Assembly: GCA_964562815.1 (NCBI GenBank) | Contig: CAZLUX010000004.1 | Span: forward strand, 1 to 43,024 | Source: an uncultured Enterobacteriaceae bacterium | Lineage (GTDB): Bacteria; Pseudomonadota; Gammaproteobacteria; Burkholderiales; SG8-39 | Direction of reading: 5' to 3' | Length of the DNA: 43,024 bases | Part shown: piece after piece, positions 23,780 to 29,884 of the stretch | Position numbering within the stretch: the stretch's first letter is position 1 | Layout of the letters: each line of letters opens with the position of its first letter | Notes under the pieces: model-generated | Seen by the model: only the letters and a program-made list of their open reading frames with translations | What the model was told of the DNA's origin: nothing | The model's database searches: none | Program-made: the position numbers and the translations under genes

Positions 23780-24748
23780 CTAGAAACCGATCCTCGATTT
23801 CTTCACGCCGCGCCCGTCCTGGATGTCGTCCGGGTTCACCTCGTCGCGGCCGGCGAGCTTGGCGTTGCCGAAGCCAAGCTGCACGGCGCGCCGCATCTCG
23901 CGCGGCGTGAGCACCGCGAGCTTCTCGAGCACGGTCTGCGACGGCGTCTCGGGGAACTTCCGGCCCCAGTCGTGGGCGCAACGGATCTCGCGGTAGATCG
24001 CGAGCGCGATTCGCGCGGCGCCCGCCGCATCGGGCGGCTCGATTTCGTAGACGTTCATCCGGTTGAGAATCGGCTCCGGAATGCGGGCCGGATCGTTCGC
24101 GGTCGCGAACCACACCGCCCCGGACGCGTCGATCGGGATCTCGACGAACTCGTCGACGAACTGCGTCGCGGTGTGGGCTTCGAGCAGGGCGTAGAGGGCG
24201 CCGAGCGGATCGTACTGGCCGCCGTCGGCCGCCTTGTCGATCTCGTCGACGACCATGACCGGGTTGGCGTACTCGCCGTGCAGGAAGGTGTCGAACACCT
24301 TGCCCGGCTTGGCGTTCTTCCACTGCGAGGAGGCGCCCGACAGGATCCAGCCCGCCGTGAGCGAGCTCATCGGCACGAAGCCGAAGCCGGTGCCGAGCAG
24401 CGCGGCGACGCGCTTGGCGAAGTGCGTCTTGCCGATGCCCGGCTCGCCCAGCAGCAGCGTCGGCGGCAGCTCGACGGAGTCCTCCGAGTCGATGCACAAG
24501 GCGAGGTGCTTACGGATGTCCTCGAGCACCTCGCCGAAGTTGGGCAGCTCGTCGAACAGCCCGTCCATCTGCGGCATCGACGAAGGCTTGACGGTGAAGC
24601 GCTGGCCGCCCATGCGCAGCATCTTCTCGTACAGCGTGCGCAGCCCTTCGTTGGCCGAAGGGGTGAGCTCCTGCAGGGCCTTGTCGACGTCCGCGACGCT
24701 GTAGACGTCCTTGAAGCCCGCGACCGGAATGGCGACGTTTGCCGACAT
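23780..24748 (-). CDS. AAA+ family ATPase (stand-alone, Lon-like AAA module without a protease domain)
   Basis: ATG at 24746-24748 preceded by AGGAGG. Walker A LLLGEPGIGKTH, Walker B PVMVVDEIDK, sensor region FATAN and Arg-finger region ILNRM. About 322 aa. Confidence 0.85.
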   Translation of the reverse strand: MSANVAIPVAGFKDVYSVADVDKALQELTPSANEGLRTLYEKMLRMGGQRFTVKPSSMPQMDGLFDELPNFGEVLEDIRKHLALCIDSEDSVELPPTLLLGEPGIGKTHFAKRVAALLGTGFGFVPMSSLTAGWILSGASSQWKNAKPGKVFDTFLHGEYANPVMVVDEIDKAADGGQYDPLGALYALLEAHTATQFVDEFVEIPIDASGAVWFATANDPARIPEPILNRMNVYEIEPPDAAGAARIALAIYREIRCAHDWGRKFPETPSQTVLEKLAVLTPREMRRAVQLGFGNAKLAGRDEVNPDDIQDGRGVKKSRIGF

Positions 24749-24897
24749 TGTTCTACCTCCTCGGTTTTCGGCGGCATGCCCGCGCGAAAAACGTAACATG
24801 ACGCTCGAAGCCTAAGCAATACTCGGGCCATACCTTGGCAGCCGATTGCCGCGAGTGCTGATGGCCGACACGCTCGTCGTGTAGAGTCGGAATTGCC

Positions 24898-25371
24898 ATG
24901 GAAGGCCCATCGACATCTTCGCGCCCGGACTTGAGCGCGCAAGCGTTCAACCGGCGCGGTGCGGGGCACCTGCCCGGATTGGTCGGGCTGGAGATCATTT
25001 CGGTCACCTCGGAGGCAATCGAGAGCCGCCTCCCCGTGCGCCCGGAGCTGCTCGCGCCGAACGGCTACCTGCACGCGGCCTCGGTCATCGCGCTCGCCGA
25101 CACGAGCTGCGGCTACGGCTGTGTCGTCAATTTGCCGCAAGGCGCGCGCGGGTTCACCACCATCGAGCTGAAGACGAATTTTCTCGGTACCGCGCTCGAA
25201 GGCGCGCTGCGCTGCCGTGCGGTCCCGGTCCACCTCGGGCGAACGACCCAGGTCTGGGACGCGAACGTGACCGTCGAAGGCAGCGGCAAGGGCATTGCCC
25301 TGTTCCGCTGCACCCAGATGGTACTGTGGCCGAAGGAAGGCGCCAAAGTTGCCAAACAGCGCCCCGCGTGA
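24898..25371 (+). CDS. PaaI-family hotdog-fold thioesterase
   Basis: 157 aa. NGYLHAASVIALADTSCGYG and ELKTNFLG...HLGRTTQVWD match the PaaI / uncharacterised-domain-1 thioesterase pattern. Confidence 0.85.
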   Translation: MEGPSTSSRPDLSAQAFNRRGAGHLPGLVGLEIISVTSEAIESRLPVRPELLAPNGYLHAASVIALADTSCGYGCVVNLPQGARGFTTIELKTNFLGTALEGALRCRAVPVHLGRTTQVWDANVTVEGSGKGIALFRCTQMVLWPKEGAKVAKQRPA

Positions 25372-25396
25372 TTCAATCCCCCTTGAGGTCGATGCG

Positions 25397-25462
25397 ATGA
25401 AACGCTGGTTTTACGGCTTTTTCTTCTTTTTCCCGCGCCCGCTGGCGGAAGGGAACGGCTAG
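25397..25462 (+). CDS. Candidate aromatic-amino-acid leader peptide (21 aa, MKRWFYGFFFFFPRPLAEGNG) upstream of the DAHP synthase gene
   Basis: ATG at 25397 follows GAGG at 25385-25388; stop TAG at 25460-25462. Eight of 21 codons are aromatic: 6 Phe, 1 Trp and 1 Tyr. Five Phe codons run consecutively at 25418-25432. An alternative-pairing terminator follows. Not in the supplied ORF track because it is too short. Confidence 0.6.
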   Translation: MKRWFYGFFFFFPRPLAEGNG

Positions 25463-25482
25463 CCGCATCCCGACAGATCCCG

Positions 25483-25519
25483 AAAAACCGCCAGTGCCCC
25501 AAAGCCTGGCGGTTTTTTT
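25483..25519 (+). terminator. Rho-independent terminator / attenuator hairpin (A-tract, 7-12 bp stem, U-tract)
   Basis: AAAAACCGCCAG (25483-25494), 11-nt loop, CTGGCGGTTTTTTT (25506-25519). Core stem is CCGCCAG/CTGGCGG, extendable by A:U pairs. Lies 25 nt before the aroG-type ATG. A third copy of CTGGCGG at 25442-25448 can compete for the 5' arm. Confidence 0.75.
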
Positions 25520-25544
25520 ATGCCCACCACCCAAGACCCCTGCC

Positions 25545-26681
25545 ATGACGACGCCCGCTGACAGCTTCCCGACCCATTCGCCGCTCGACAAGACCTCGCT
25601 CACCGACGATGAGCGGATCGAGAACATCGTACCGCTGCCGCCGCCGGAGCACCTGATCCGCTTCTTTCCGATCCAGGGCACGCCGGTCGAGACGCTCATC
25701 GACGACACGCGGCGCCGGGTGCGCGACATCCTGCACGGGCGCTCGGACCGGCTGCTGGTGGTGATCGGCCCTTGCTCGATCCACGACCCCACTGCGGCGC
25801 TCGCCTATGCCGAGCGCCTCGCCGCCGAGCGGGCCCGCTTCGCCGGCGAGCTCGAGGTGCTGATGCGGGTGTACTTCGAGAAGCCGCGCACCACCGTGGG
25901 CTGGAAGGGGCTGATCAACGATCCCTACCTGAACGGCAGTTTCCGCATCAACGAGGGGCTGCGCATCGCGCGCGACCTGCTGGTGCGGATCAACCAGGCC
26001 GGCGTGCCGGCCGGCTGCGAGTTCCTCGACGTGATTTCGCCCCAGTACATCGGCGATCTGGTGTCGTGGGGCGCGATCGGCGCCCGCACGACCGAATCCC
26101 AGGTGCACCGCGAGCTCGCCTCGGGCCTTTCGGCGGCGGTCGGCTTCAAGAACGGGACCGACGGCAATGTGCGCATCGCGGTGGACGCCATCCTTGCCGC
26201 CCGGCAGAGGCACCACTTCCTCTCGGTGCACAAGAGCGGACAGGTGTCGATCGTCGAGACGCGCGGCAACGACGACTGCCACATCATCCTGCGCGGCGGC
26301 CGGCAGCCGAACTACGATGTGGCCAGCGTCAAGACCGCCTGCGACGAGCTGCGCAATGCGGGGCTCACCGAGCGCCTGATGATCGACTGCTCGCACGCCA
26401 ACAGCCGCAAGGATTACCGGCGCCAGCGCGAGGTCTGCGGCGAGATCGGTGCCCAGATCGCGGCCGGCGACGGCCGTATCCTGGGCGTCATGATCGAGTC
26501 GAATCTCGTCGAGGGACGCCAGGACCTCAAGCCGGGGCGCGCGCTGACCTTCGGCCAGAGCATCACCGACGGCTGCCTGGGGTGGGAAACGTCGGTGTCC
26601 CTGCTCGAGCGCCTCGCGCAGGCGGTTGCCGCGCGCCGCGAGGTGGCCGCGGTGGGCGATACGACCGCGGCCGGGGACTGA
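25545..26681 (+). CDS. aroG: 3-deoxy-7-phosphoheptulonate (DAHP) synthase, class I-alpha
   Basis: Near-colinear similarity to E. coli AroG as I recall it: DRLLVVIGPCSIHDP, VYFEKPRTTVGWKGLINDP, WGAIGARTTESQVHRELASGLS, GFKNGTDG, CHIILRGG, DCSHANS. Isozyme specificity (Phe/Tyr/Trp) is not determinable from the sequence. The symbol denotes the family. Confidence 0.93.
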   Translation: MTTPADSFPTHSPLDKTSLTDDERIENIVPLPPPEHLIRFFPIQGTPVETLIDDTRRRVRDILHGRSDRLLVVIGPCSIHDPTAALAYAERLAAERARFAGELEVLMRVYFEKPRTTVGWKGLINDPYLNGSFRINEGLRIARDLLVRINQAGVPAGCEFLDVISPQYIGDLVSWGAIGARTTESQVHRELASGLSAAVGFKNGTDGNVRIAVDAILAARQRHHFLSVHKSGQVSIVETRGNDDCHIILRGGRQPNYDVASVKTACDELRNAGLTERLMIDCSHANSRKDYRRQREVCGEIGAQIAAGDGRILGVMIESNLVEGRQDLKPGRALTFGQSITDGCLGWETSVSLLERLAQAVAARREVAAVGDTTAAGD

Positions 26682-26729
26682 GCCCTGGACGCGCTCTCGC
26701 CCGAGCTGATCGGCGCCGCCGCGCTGGTC

Positions 26730-27431
26730 GTGCTCGGCGCCTATGTCGTGTACGGGATGACGGGGTTCGGCTCGACCGTGCTCTCGATGCCGCTGCTCGC
26801 GCAGTTGCTGCCGCTCAAGTTCGCCGTCCCGCTGATGCTCTTGCTCGATCTCGGGGCGTTCGCGCTCTTCGGCGCGCGCTTCCGGCGCGGCATCCGCTAC
26901 GACGAGATCCGCTGGCTCGCGGCGTTCATGCTTGCGGGCATCGCGATCGGGCTGACGCTGCTGATCCGCGTCTCCGAGCAGCGCCTGCTCGCGGGACTGG
27001 GCCTTTTCGTGCTTGCGTACGCGGCCTACGGCCTGCAGCGGCGCGGCGCGCCGCTCTCGCTTGCACGCGCATGGAGCGCACCGATCGGGATCACCGGCGG
27101 GGCGCTGTCGGCCATGTTCGGCACCGGCGGCGTGCTGTTCGCGATCTTCAACAGCGGACGCATCCGCGACAAAGGCGAGCTGCGGGCGACCAACGCGGCG
27201 ATGATCATGGCGTCCTCGATCGTGCGGGTAGTGCTCTTCGGAGCCGCCGGTCTGCTGTCGCAGAGCGGGCTGATCGTGACCGCGCTCTGGCTCGCGCCGG
27301 CGATGATCGCCGGCCTCTTGATCGGCAACAGGCTGCACGCCGCGGTTCCGACCGGTGCCGTGGTGCGCGTGGTCTATCTGCTGCTGGCGGTGGCGGGCGT
27401 GTCGCTGCTGATTCGCGCGGCCTCGTCCTGA
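26730..27431 (+). CDS. TauE/SafE family sulfite-exporter-like membrane protein (start may lie upstream)
   Basis: 233 aa polytopic. GAYVVYGMTGFGSTVLSMPLL and a second repeat (TGGALSAMFGTGGVLF) are the duplicated TauE motifs. The frame is open back to 26682 (ALDALSPELIGAAALVV) with only a CTG available. Confidence 0.8.
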   Translation: MLGAYVVYGMTGFGSTVLSMPLLAQLLPLKFAVPLMLLLDLGAFALFGARFRRGIRYDEIRWLAAFMLAGIAIGLTLLIRVSEQRLLAGLGLFVLAYAAYGLQRRGAPLSLARAWSAPIGITGGALSAMFGTGGVLFAIFNSGRIRDKGELRATNAAMIMASSIVRVVLFGAAGLLSQSGLIVTALWLAPAMIAGLLIGNRLHAAVPTGAVVRVVYLLLAVAGVSLLIRAASS

Positions 27432-27482: not shown

Positions 27483-29012
27483 TTGATTCGAATCTCCACC
27501 CGACGCTGGCTCGCAATCGCGCTCGTCGCTACGCTGGCGTTCCGCTTCTGGCTCTCGGCGGTCCTTCCCATGACCGGCGACGAAGCCTACTTCGTGCTGT
27601 GGGGCCGTCATCCGGACCTGGGCTTCTACGACCACCCGCCGATGGTCGGCTGGCTGCTCGCGCTGATCCTGCACTGGTCCGACACCGAGTGGGCGTTGCG
27701 CCTGCCGGTGACCCTGCTGCCGCCGGCGCTTGCGCTCGTGCTGCGCGCTGCGCTGCGCGGCTGGTTCGGCCGCGACGAGGACACCGCCAACCTGGCTGCG
27801 CTGTGCGTGCTGCTGGTGCCGCTGAACTTCATCAATGTCCTGATCACGACGGACACGCCGCTGATCTTTTTCTCGACGCTGTCGGTGCTGTTCTTCGCGC
27901 GCGCGGCGCAGCGCGGCTCGGCCGGCGTTTTTCTCGCTTCGGGCGTGTTCCTGGGGCTCGCATTCCTGTCCAAATATTTCGCCGTGCTTCTCGGCCTGGG
28001 CTACTTCGCCTGGGCGCTGGCCTCGCCCGGCGCGAGGCGCCGCTGGACGGGGCCGCTGCTCGTCTTCGTCGGTGCGCTGCCATTCGCGCTCGAGAACCTG
28101 TACTGGAACTACGAGGCCTGCTGGTGCAACCTGATGTTCAACGCGGTCAACCGGCAGTCGGACGCCGCCTGGTCGCTGTTGACGCCGGCGCTCTACCTTC
28201 TCTCGCTTGCCTACCTCGCGGCGCCGCTGCTGTTCTGGGCGTGGAAAGAGCGCGCGCAGCTGCGCGCGAGCGCGGCGTCGCCGGAGGCTCGCGCGCTGCT
28301 GCTGGCCTGGGCCGTTCCGTTCGCGGTATTCGCGCTGGTGTCGCTGCGCAAGGAAATCGGCCTGCACTGGATGCTTTCGTTCATGCCGGCGCTGATCGCG
28401 AGCCTGGCGCTGCTGCCGGGGCGCAGGCCGCTTGCCTCGAGCGCGCGCTTTTTTGCGTGGTTCGTCGCCCTGCACGCGCTCGCGATCGTGACCATCGCGA
28501 ATCTGCCGATGCAGACATGGAAGGGCTGGACGCGCATGTATCCGCGCATCGTCGCGTTCGTGGACACGCGCGGCGTGCTGAAGAGAGTCGAACCGTACTT
28601 CGGGCGCTACCGGCTCGCCGCGAGCAGCTACGCGGCCGCGGCCAGCTACGAGTACTACGCGGGCCGGCGGGTGATCGTGTTCGGCCCCGGCTCGTCGCAC
28701 GCGCGCCACGACGACATCCTGACCGACTTTCGCAAGCTCGACGGGGCCGACATCCTGGTGCTGCGGCCCTCGCCGCCGCCCGAGGGAGAATACCGGCCGT
28801 ACTTCCGCAGCATGCGGGTGCAAACGTTCGAGGTCCGGGGCGTCACGTTCTACGCGGTGCTCGGCCAGGGCTTCGACTATCGCGCCTACCACGACCGCGT
28901 CCTGACGTTCGTGCGCGATCACTACTACCGCCGGCCGTGGTGGCTGCCGCCGGGCCGCTGCTACTTCTGCGAGCGCTACTTCGGCAGCGGCGACTGCGGC
29001 TGGAGGCACTGA
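27483..29012 (+). CDS. Glycosyltransferase family 39 (GT-C fold, PMT_2 / ArnT-like) membrane protein
   Basis: 509 aa with a TTG start. N-terminal loop motif TGDEAYFVLWGRHPDLGFYDHPPMVGWLL is the catalytic DE-containing first periplasmic loop of ArnT/PMT-type enzymes. About 10 helices are followed by a soluble C-terminal domain of roughly 140 aa. Confidence 0.85.
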   Translation: MIRISTRRWLAIALVATLAFRFWLSAVLPMTGDEAYFVLWGRHPDLGFYDHPPMVGWLLALILHWSDTEWALRLPVTLLPPALALVLRAALRGWFGRDEDTANLAALCVLLVPLNFINVLITTDTPLIFFSTLSVLFFARAAQRGSAGVFLASGVFLGLAFLSKYFAVLLGLGYFAWALASPGARRRWTGPLLVFVGALPFALENLYWNYEACWCNLMFNAVNRQSDAAWSLLTPALYLLSLAYLAAPLLFWAWKERAQLRASAASPEARALLLAWAVPFAVFALVSLRKEIGLHWMLSFMPALIASLALLPGRRPLASSARFFAWFVALHALAIVTIANLPMQTWKGWTRMYPRIVAFVDTRGVLKRVEPYFGRYRLAASSYAAAASYEYYAGRRVIVFGPGSSHARHDDILTDFRKLDGADILVLRPSPPPEGEYRPYFRSMRVQTFEVRGVTFYAVLGQGFDYRAYHDRVLTFVRDHYYRRPWWLPPGRCYFCERYFGSGDCGWRH

Positions 29013-29884
29013 TGCTGCGCGCACGCGAGCTGGTGCGCCTGTTGCGCCCGCATCAGTGGGTCAAGAACGGCTTCGTTCTGGCCGGCCTCGTTTTCGGGCA
29101 CGGCTGGGACGACCCGCACATGGTGGTGCTTGCGCTGTCGGCGTTCCTCGCCTTCTGTCTGGCGTCGAGCGCCGTGTACGCGTTCAACGACGCCATCGAC
29201 GCGGAGCAGGACCGCGGCCACCCCGAGAAGCGTACCCGCCCCGTGGCGAAGGGCGCGGTGAGCATCGCGGAGGCCCTCACGCTCGCCGTGCTGCTCGCGC
29301 TGGGCGGGCTCGGGATCGGCGCGCTCGTATCGCTGGGGGTCGCTGCGTCGGTCGCCGGCTATCTGGTGCTCAACGCCGCCTACACGCTCGGCCTCAAGCA
29401 CGTGCCGGTGATCGACGTGCTCGCGCTCGCCGCGGGCTTCATGCTGCGGCTGCTCGCCGGGACGGCGGGGATCGGAATCGTGCCTTCGAACTGGATTCTC
29501 GCCTGCGGCGTGCTGCTGACCTTGTTCCTGGGTTTTGCCAAGCGCCGCGCCGAGCTCGACCGGCTGGCGGACGACGCGCATCAGCATCGCGCGGTGCTGG
29601 CGGCCTACAGCCCCCGGTTTCTGGACATTGCGATAACCGTGTGCGCGGCCGGAATGATCGTCGCTTACGTGTTCTACACGCTCGCGCCGGAAACGGCCGA
29701 GCTGCACGGCACGAACCGGCTCGTGCTGACGGTGCCGTGGGTGCTGCTCGGCACGCTGCGTTATCTCTTTCGCCTGCGCTTCCGCGGCGGCGGCGGCGAC
29801 CCGTCGTCCGAGCTGCTTCGAGACCCCGCGCTGACGGCGGCGGTCGTGGGATGGCTCGCCACCGTGCTGTGGCTCATCTCCTGA
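29012..29884 (+). CDS. UbiA-family prenyltransferase, decaprenyl-phosphate phosphoribosyltransferase-like (DPPR synthase type)
   Basis: ATG at 29012 forms a TGATG junction with the GT39 stop. LRPHQWVKNGFVLAGLVF and the Asp-rich motif YAFNDAIDAEQDRGHPEKRTRPVA closely resemble Rv3806c-type 5-phosphoribosyl-1-pyrophosphate:polyprenyl-phosphate transferases. 290 aa, polytopic. Confidence 0.85.
   Translation: MLRARELVRLLRPHQWVKNGFVLAGLVFGHGWDDPHMVVLALSAFLAFCLASSAVYAFNDAIDAEQDRGHPEKRTRPVAKGAVSIAEALTLAVLLALGGLGIGALVSLGVAASVAGYLVLNAAYTLGLKHVPVIDVLALAAGFMLRLLAGTAGIGIVPSNWILACGVLLTLFLGFAKRRAELDRLADDAHQHRAVLAAYSPRFLDIAITVCAAGMIVAYVFYTLAPETAELHGTNRLVLTVPWVLLGTLRYLFRLRFRGGGGDPSSELLRDPALTAAVVGWLATVLWLIS

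Follow-up and report, generated by a model that had tools for sequence, protein, structure and literature searches.

A probable leader-peptide attenuator upstream of the DAHP synthase gene aroG and its conservation in Burkholderiales and Xanthomonas

Results

An aromatic-rich leader reading frame upstream of aroG

A stretch of DNA of 43,024 nucleotides (nt) from an uncultured bacterium placed in the Burkholderiales (contig CAZLUX010000004.1 of assembly GCA_964562815.1), referred to hereafter as the window, was analysed for a regulatory element lying in front of aroG, a gene for 3-deoxy-7-phosphoheptulonate (DAHP) synthase. The window has a G+C content of 68.8%. The aroG gene occupies positions 25545-26681 of the plus strand and encodes a protein of 378 amino acids belonging to class I (AroF/G/H-type) DAHP synthases (TIGR00034), with a score of 527.8 bits against that model as compared with a cut-off of 173.2. 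The protein scored below the cut-off of the AroG equivalog model (528.6, cut-off 568) and above that of the AroH subfamily model (496, cut-off 463), so that these two models give no clear call on the effector specificity of the enzyme. The upstream neighbour of aroG, on the same strand, is a hotdog-fold thioesterase gene ending in a TGA at 25369-25371, which leaves an intergenic gap of 173 nt between this stop and the aroG ATG (25545). An initial annotation of the gap, made from the letters of the sequence, had described a short open reading frame (ORF) rich in aromatic codons, followed by a terminator/antiterminator switch, and had likened the whole to a ribosome-mediated attenuator. Rechecking of the sequence found all of its positions to be correct, for the gap and the ORF as well as for the GAGG, the Phe run, the heptamers and the T7 tract that are described below.

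The leader ORF (25397-25462, plus strand) comprises 21 codons followed by a TAG at 25460-25462 and encodes the peptide MKRWFYGFFFFFPRPLAEGNG, which is also contained in an entry of the ORF list of the window. Eight of the 21 residues are aromatic. The regulatory codon run, at 25406-25432 on the plus strand, reads TGG TTT TAC GGC TTT TTC TTC TTT TTC, that is W F Y G F F F F F, and closes with five consecutive Phe codons (25418-25432). With eight aromatic residues out of nine, WFYGFFFFF was the only stretch in the six-frame translation of the window to reach six or more aromatics in nine. When the window was shuffled (n = 50), 48 of the shuffled sequences lacked any stretch of this kind, and the maximum reached was six in nine. 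A GAGG that reads as Shine-Dalgarno (SD)-like is present on the plus strand at 25385-25388, 8 nt 5' of the leader ATG. The uniqueness of the run in six frames, together with the presence of homologous ORFs at 63 of the 80 related loci described below, supports the view that the small aromatic-rich ORF with its five Phe codons is real.

Four RNA elements with mutually exclusive pairings

The switch described in the initial annotation was built on a heptamer that occurs three times in alternating sense: CTGGCGG at 25442-25448, its complement CCGCCAG at 25488-25494, and CTGGCGG again at 25506-25512. The last copy is followed by T7 at 25513-25519, 25 nt before the aroG ATG; this is the only run of seven or more T residues in the 43 kb of the window, in which no run of six or more A residues occurs. 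CTGGCGG is frequent in this genome, the window containing 15 copies of it and 7 of its complement, and its triple occurrence alone is therefore weak evidence. The heptamer repeat on its own was accordingly rejected as an argument, and the weight of the case comes from the comparative data.

Four elements were delimited on the plus strand. Region 1, the anti-antiterminator arm (UUCUUUUUCCCGCGCC, 25424-25439), is made up of the last Phe codons and CCGCGCC, and is predicted to pair with region 2 (CGCUGGCGG plus GGGAA, 25440-25455), which forms the antiterminator's 5' arm and lies within the 3' part of the leader ORF. Region 3 (AAAAACCGCCAGUGC, 25483-25497) serves both structures, as 5' arm in the terminator and as 3' arm in the antiterminator; region 4 (GCCUGGCGG and then U7, 25504-25519) provides the 3' arm and U-tract of the intrinsic terminator. 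The number of elements in the switch thus rises from the three first described to four, by the addition of region 1 as a predicted partner of region 2. The alternative pairing of the middle heptamer with either flanking copy was borne out, by the folds given here and by the conservation and compensatory changes reported in the following sections.

The terminator hairpin, AAAAACCGCCAG-U-GC/CCCAAA/GC-CUGGCGGUUUUU, had a predicted energy of -22.3 kcal/mol (z = -6.4), and none of 200 shuffled sequences was as good; folded alone, the terminator gave -21.8 to -22.3 kcal/mol. For the full leader (25397-25519) the minimum-energy fold combined the 1:2 and 3:4 helices at -45.4 kcal/mol (z = -2.25), with 25424-25436 paired with 25441-25455 in the 1:2 part. 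A short version of 1:2, in which UUCCC pairs with GGGAA and CGCC with GGCG, gave -12.1 kcal/mol. When region 4 was omitted, CGCUGGCGG (25440-25448) paired with CCGCCAGUG (25488-25496) around a small internal hairpin (z = -2.4). The comparison of helices proposed in the initial annotation set two mutually exclusive structures side by side, 2:3 at -23.3 kcal/mol and 3:4 at -22.3 kcal/mol.

A simple terminator scan missed the hairpin, in our reading because, with its stem bulged, the heptamers stand 11 nt apart, as compared with a loop limit of 3-8 nt in the scan. The terminator is nearly symmetric (A5-stem-loop-stem-U7, 25482-25519), and its motif was also matched on the minus strand in the window and at 25 other loci. 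To judge from this symmetry, the hairpin could also stop antisense transcription arriving from the aroG side.

The leader and terminator accompany aroG in most related loci

Relatives of the DAHP synthase were collected with one genome per species, giving 80 loci whose enzymes share 61-81% amino-acid identity. Almost all are from Burkholderiales (Comamonadaceae, Burkholderiaceae, Oxalobacteraceae, Alcaligenaceae), to which Xanthomonas and Pseudoxanthomonas are added. An aromatic-rich leader ORF and a terminator upstream of aroG were scored at 63 of the 80 loci. The leader ORFs at these 63 loci start with ATG, have 16-33 codons, carry five to eight aromatic residues in their densest eight-residue stretch and lie 100-230 nt 5' of aroG; MSAKFYFYFFWHLRPLADREG, MRSAFYFYFWFSVPGG and MNANRSFYFWYYGFPMPLAEEGVRSP are examples of the peptides from other loci. 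A hairpin followed by a T-run was found 17-45 nt beyond the leader stop in every case. Its sequence is near-constant, AAACCGCC(A/G)G-loop-C(U/C)GGCGGUUUUUUU, the terminator form being AAACCGCC(A/G)G-loop-C(U/C)GGCGGU7. The terminator motif was present at three more loci, L020, L028 and L038, which brings the count to about 66 of 80; L020 and L038 are cut by a contig end, with truncation of the L038 leader, and the leader of L028 is poor in aromatic residues.

In most of the 63 loci C(U/C)GGCGG lies inside the leader ORF, 5-11 nt past the last aromatic codon, with 8-26 nt remaining to the stop. It was also the best partner of the terminator 5' arm in most loci, with a median duplex energy of -13.8 kcal/mol and a mean z of -2.4. 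In an alignment of 61 sequences the leader ATG was invariant, and so was the CCGCC core of region 3, with 60 of 61 sequences agreeing at its last base.

Both leader and terminator were missing at L004, L022 and L074 (Polynucleobacter and relatives), at L016 (Cupriavidus), at L063, L065, L067 and L072 (Rhodocyclaceae), at L080 (Methylophilus) and in a few metagenome-assembled genomes. In the Polynucleobacter-type loci, the gene upstream of aroG (ending ...LTVGGTA*) is one that in many Comamonadaceae stands before the leader. It would seem, therefore, that this intergenic space has lost the attenuator or never gained it.

The nearest upstream ORFs fell into at least eight unrelated groups, with both orientations represented. 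The thioesterase of the window recurs at L036 only, and at L002, which is among the three closest relatives (L001, L002 and L036), the upstream gene is divergent. Since the upstream gene varies between loci, the hairpin is not merely the terminator of that gene, and the element travels with aroG. Across the 522 kb of fetched loci the terminator motif had only one match elsewhere, an unrelated one in a coding region of L018. The possibility that the motif is a generic repeat or terminator of these genomes was rejected on this ground.

Compensatory changes in the alternative helices

Pairing was counted for each helix in the 61-sequence alignment (A1), and sliding of the partner by 1-3 columns provided the controls. 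In the terminator (3:4), 92% of cells were paired, as compared with 35-61% after sliding, and the variable pair was GC in 34 sequences and AU in 25. The antiterminator (2:3) had 86% of cells paired as compared with 21-57%, with UA at the variable pair in 20 sequences, CG in 18 and UG in 3. The outer 1:2 helix (UUCYC with GRGAG) was paired in 90% of cells and showed compensatory changes at three of its five pairs; the inner helix reached 62%, and the 1:2 structure as a whole 77%, as compared with 43-63% when the partner was slid. The base that varies in concert in regions 2, 3 and 4 was scored at 56 loci, where it was C-G-C in 23, U-A-U in 18 and U-G-C in 3. Regions 3 and 4 were complementary at this base in all 56.

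The 1:2 and 2:3 helices were tested in the alignment as named structures, and are well supported by these counts, which do not take phylogeny into account. The alignment of orthologous loci, which the initial annotation had proposed as a check, thus found the codon run and the helices to be conserved, with compensatory changes. The C-terminal motifs of the leader peptides, PLAEG, PGGRE, PLADREG and TAVEKR, are the translation of region 2; constraint on the RNA therefore explains their conservation.

Codon content of the leaders

Phe is the most frequent aromatic residue in 62 leaders (279 F, as compared with 112 Y and 52 W). Tyr was present in 61 of the 62 and Trp in 49, and aromatic positions interchange among F, Y and W from one leader to another. 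Trp usually adjoins region 1 in the family, and in most relatives both Tyr and Trp stand next to it (...Y F W F S...). Judged by its codons, the family as a whole looks multivalent for Phe, Tyr and Trp. The proposal that the leader samples all three aromatic amino acids thus suits the family better than the window copy, in which the Phe codons alone appear to be placed for a stalled ribosome to mask region 1.

The signature of the leaders is one of codons, and the choice among synonymous ones is also distinctive. TTT accounts for 62% of Phe codons in the leaders, as compared with 17% in the adjacent aroG genes and 11% in the genes of the window, and three of the six Phe codons in the window regulatory run are this rare TTT. 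Similarly, TAT makes up 41% of Tyr codons in the leaders and 23% in aroG. This bias towards rare codons ending in U could result from selection for slow decoding, or from the need of the U-rich region 1 to pair with region 2, which is rich in purines.

Promoter-like sequences and the start of the leader

A candidate sigma-70 promoter for the leader transcript lies at 25349-25377 on the plus strand, overlapping the final codons of the thioesterase gene and its stop. It consists of a -35 hexamer TTGCCA (25349-25354), a 17-nt spacer containing a TG at 25369-25370, and a -10 hexamer TTCAAT (25372-25377). At the same position in L001, L002 and L036, the three closest loci, there is an equivalent sequence, TTGCCA/TTGCCT/TAGACA-18 nt-TGC-TTGAAT.

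An SD-like motif was found in only 2 of the 62 leaders, so that the GAGG of the window is unusual in the family. A TG-extended -10-like hexamer just 5' of the leader ATG was present at 40 of the 62 loci, and in 39 it ends 6-9 nt before the ATG. Its consensus is cTGTGC-TACATT, with TTGAAT in L001, L002 and L036 and TATCAA(T) in Xanthomonas; positions 2752-2765 of L014 provide an example. Beyond cTGTGC-TACATT, no consistent -35 box or operator was found 5' of the extended -10 in Comamonadaceae-type loci. With the -10-like hexamer ending 6-9 nt before the AUG and SD motifs being rare, a leaderless (5'-AUG) transcript is the probable template for the leader peptide in most lineages. The window copy departs from this pattern, as 19 nt, including the GAGG, separate its -10-like TTCAAT from the ATG.

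Searches for known families

The scan with the Rfam leader models that the initial annotation had suggested was carried out with Rfam 15 on the whole window, and at the gathering score it returned no match to any family, Phe_leader and Trp_leader included. When the threshold was relaxed to E <=10 for positions 25300-25620, the only models reported were unrelated ones (Hrs12, NsiR1 and others), each at E >1 and matching the terminator hairpin only. Six leader peptides from different clades, searched at E <=10, matched no family in NCBIfam and none in Pfam.

Other features of the locus

A 13-codon ORF encoding MPTTQDPCHDDAR (ATG CCC ACC ACC CAA GAC CCC TGC CAT GAC GAC GCC CGC TGA, 25520-25561) begins right after the U-tract and overlaps the aroG ATG out of frame. 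The bases at its position are not conserved in the 61-sequence alignment, which reaches 8 nt beyond the hairpin. No SD motif precedes the aroG ATG itself (cccaagacccctgcc).

Divergent from the thioesterase-aroG unit, the minus strand carries at 23780-24799 a gene for a protein of 339 amino acids whose matches are confined to the AAA+ ATPase module of Lon (TIGR00763 positions 357-495; Pfam AAA); a scan with family models detected no protease domain in it. On the plus strand, 3' of aroG, there follow genes for a TauE/SafE-family membrane protein (26730-27431), a PMT_2 (GT39/ArnT-like) glycosyltransferase (27483-29012) and a UbiA-family prenyltransferase (29009-29884). The last two genes share 4 nt, the UbiA start overlapping the glycosyltransferase stop, which suggests that they are a coupled pair acting in envelope glycosylation.

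Discussion

A model for control of aroG

The leader in front of aroG combines a translatable short ORF, enrichment in codons for the end products of the pathway and a Rho-independent terminator before the gene. It also contains an antiterminator that is exclusive with the terminator, and its region 2 is placed between the last aromatic codon and the stop. The architecture of ribosome-mediated attenuation put forward in the initial annotation is thus upheld, the ORF, the terminator and the alternative pairing all being conserved with compensatory changes. What computation shows is the set of elements, that their pairings exclude one another, and that they are conserved and co-vary with aroG; from the sequence we infer the promoter, the geometry of the ribosome footprint and the response to tRNA charging. 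On this basis we consider it highly probable that the class I DAHP synthase gene is controlled by a ribosome-mediated (leader-peptide) transcription attenuator.

In the model, transcription would start just 5' of the leader, and a ribosome would translate the 21 codons while RNA polymerase makes the next ~60 nt. When Phe-tRNA is plentiful (in most relatives Tyr- and Trp-tRNA also), the ribosome would reach the TAG at 25460 and cover region 2; taking the standard footprint, some -12 to +15 nt relative to the P site, a ribosome at the TAG would cover approximately 25445-25472. Masking of region 2 would allow 3:4 to form, and the AAAAACCGCCAG...CUGGCGGU7 terminator would end transcription 25 nt before aroG. 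If the leader were not translated, 1:2 and 3:4 would form together, as in the minimum-energy structure, and the outcome would again be termination. When charged aromatic tRNA is scarce, the ribosome would stall in the Phe run (25418-25432). With one of the final Phe codons (25424-25432) in its A site, the stalled ribosome would mask region 1 and leave GGCGG (25444-25448) free. The freed region 2 could then pair with region 3 (CGCUGGCGG with CCGCCAGUG), so that no terminator would form and aroG would be transcribed.

Several observations weigh against this model. The 1:2 hairpin, which overlaps the regulatory codons and was predicted for the window as well as for about 20 of the loci sampled, is on its own no stabler in the window than shuffled sequence (z = -0.47), so that the support for 1:2 is comparative; the antiterminator including region 1 is likewise no stabler than shuffled sequence (z = -0.79). 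A non-pairing base is found at the variable 2:3 position in 12 of 56 loci. The shuffle controls for the helices ignore phylogeny, and RNAalifold, applied to the 61-sequence alignment, gave only the terminator as consensus structure. A strict promoter scan of 24600-26900 found no promoter, the candidate at 25349-25377 being missed, in our reading, because the scan requires an A at -10 position 2. With the leader ATG only 26 nt past the thioesterase stop, the leader may instead be co-transcribed with the thioesterase gene. Finally, Trp4 and Tyr6 of the window leader lie 6-8 codons 5' of region 1, and stalling there would probably leave region 2 unfreed. Because these codons are too far upstream for a ribosome stalled on them to cover region 1, the window copy looks Phe-biased.

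Other explanations of the leader

The ~120-nt terminated leader RNA, or the leader peptide, might act in trans, besides or instead of exerting control in cis. The trpL attenuator RNA and peptide of Sinorhizobium provide precedents for such a role (PMC6614838, PMC7298713), and the conservation of the terminator and region 2 across orders (CCGCC in 60-61 of 61 sequences) exceeds what pairing alone requires. However, three-way pairing and coding constraint already account for this conservation, no target can be proposed from the data, and the element always lies directly 5' of aroG; action in trans is therefore improbable.

We regard as somewhat more improbable an arrest sensor of the TnaC or SecM type, in which the nascent peptide would respond to free amino acid, perhaps in the exit tunnel. 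Arrest at amino acid abundance would turn biosynthesis on, which inverts the expected logic. The peptide does offer an aromatic-rich stretch followed by Pro residues (FFFFFPRP), but Pro codons are missing in many clades (e.g. ...FWFSVPGG and ...FYFSYSSP), F, Y and W interchange freely, and spacing is variable. The conservation of C-terminal parts of the peptide within clades, which such a sensor would explain, falls on the RNA element C(U/C)GGCGG-GAGAG, and this element shows covariation with regions 1 and 3.

Least probable of all is that the hairpin is the intrinsic terminator of the thioesterase gene, with a small ORF arisen by chance and an aroG promoter 3' of the hairpin: the hairpin does lie 111 nt past the thioesterase stop on the same strand, the A-tract on its 5' side gives it the look of a bidirectional terminator, and no strict promoter match was found in 24600-26900, but ORF and hairpin accompany aroG behind at least eight unrelated upstream genes, divergent ones included, the 25 nt between T-tract and aroG ATG leave no room for a promoter, and the aromatic run has no counterpart elsewhere in the window and is conserved at 63 loci. 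The diversity of upstream genes thus rules out the objection, raised in the initial annotation itself, that the hairpin merely ends the thioesterase transcript.

Breadth and consequences of the proposed aroG attenuator

The probable attenuator of aroG is an uncatalogued case of a well-known mechanism; the mechanism is textbook and the conceptual surprise modest. What gives the element value is how widely it occurs, that databases do not list it, that it is placed on the first common-pathway enzyme, and that its leaders are likely to be leaderless. An aroG leader of beta-proteobacteria or Xanthomonadales was not described in the literature searched, in which the comparative genomics of subscription journals is thinly covered, so that an earlier in-silico prediction is possible. 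We put forward only tentatively, from sequence comparison, the wider proposal of an uncatalogued attenuator family that would span Burkholderiales and Xanthomonadales, be multivalent for Phe, Tyr and Trp, and mostly use a leaderless leader peptide; this may well prove too broad.

The model in which DAHP synthase genes are repressed by TyrR and TrpR stems from enteric bacteria. Relative to Escherichia coli, the description of a leader-peptide attenuator on this gene as an uncommon regulatory solution stands. It does not hold in the sampled Burkholderiales and Xanthomonadales, where this is the usual arrangement (about 66 of 80 loci), and the closest precedent found, one studied by experiment, is in Corynebacterium glutamicum. 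For the entry into the shikimate pathway in the sampled groups, no description of expression control was found in the literature searched. If the model is correct, the aroG attenuator would be a main transcriptional control point of these groups, among them plant pathogens (Xanthomonas, Acidovorax), Paraburkholderia and numerous environmental Comamonadaceae.

For annotation, it would mean that a small ORF and an RNA family are missing. In transcriptomes, an abundant small RNA of ~120 nt before aroG would be the terminated leader, and in metabolic engineering, deletion of the leader should deregulate aromatic production. The predicted leaderless leaders would tie ribosome loading to the first nucleotides made by RNA polymerase, and would make a useful natural system for the study of transcription-translation coupling.

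Comparison with known attenuators

The general mechanism of leader-peptide attenuation, as in pheL-pheA, has been described (PMC3082878, PMC11802643). The aroG leader resembles pheL-pheA of E. coli and other gamma-proteobacteria in its ORF with Phe codons, its predicted 1:2/2:3/3:4 switch and a terminator before an aromatic gene. In contrast to pheL-pheA, the gene controlled here encodes the first enzyme of the common pathway and not one of the Phe branch, most relatives of the aroG leader mix Phe, Tyr and Trp codons, and most are without an SD motif. The element of the window has no Rfam match, which indicates that its sequence and structure are unrelated to those of pheL-pheA. With trpL-trpE of E. 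coli and Sinorhizobium, the aroG leader has in common four regions, regulatory codons in region 1, a stop near region 2 and, as predicted here, termination as the default in the absence of translation; trpL-trpE senses Trp only, through two or three codons, and the Rfam Trp_leader model is not matched by the aroG leader.

The thr and ilv leaders are multivalent, the former for Thr and Ile and the latter for Ile, Leu and Val. The aroG leader is like them in that one leader would sample the amino acids that share the regulated step, DAHP synthase being common to Phe, Tyr and Trp. The amino acids differ, the sequences are unrelated, and any multivalency of the window copy is suggested by codon content alone.

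Leaderless leader peptides have been mapped in Streptomyces lividans for ilvL, leuL and trpL (PMC8079986), and as far as we found only in Actinobacteria so far. The aroG leaders are alike in that 39 of 62 loci have a -10-like hexamer ending 6-9 nt before the ATG, and in their want of an SD motif; here the leaderless start is predicted from sequence, and in Proteobacteria. The window copy differs from the actinobacterial leaders in having a 19-nt spacer with a GAGG instead.

Attenuators have also been predicted before aroF-tyrA of Vibrio in Merino's attenuator database, as cited in PMC1173090. The aroR-aroF operon of C. glutamicum (Neshat et al., 2014), which encodes a DAHP synthase, has a leader peptide with Phe-Tyr-Phe, and its transcription rises under Phe limitation, according to a later account (PMC11802643). 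This is the only experimentally studied case of DAHP synthase attenuation found in the literature searched. Like the aroG leader, aroR-aroF has aromatic codons 5' of a DAHP synthase gene; compared by description, it belongs to another phylum (Actinobacteria) and has three regulatory codons, as against five to eight here. It is likely that aroR-aroF and the aroG leader are of independent origin.

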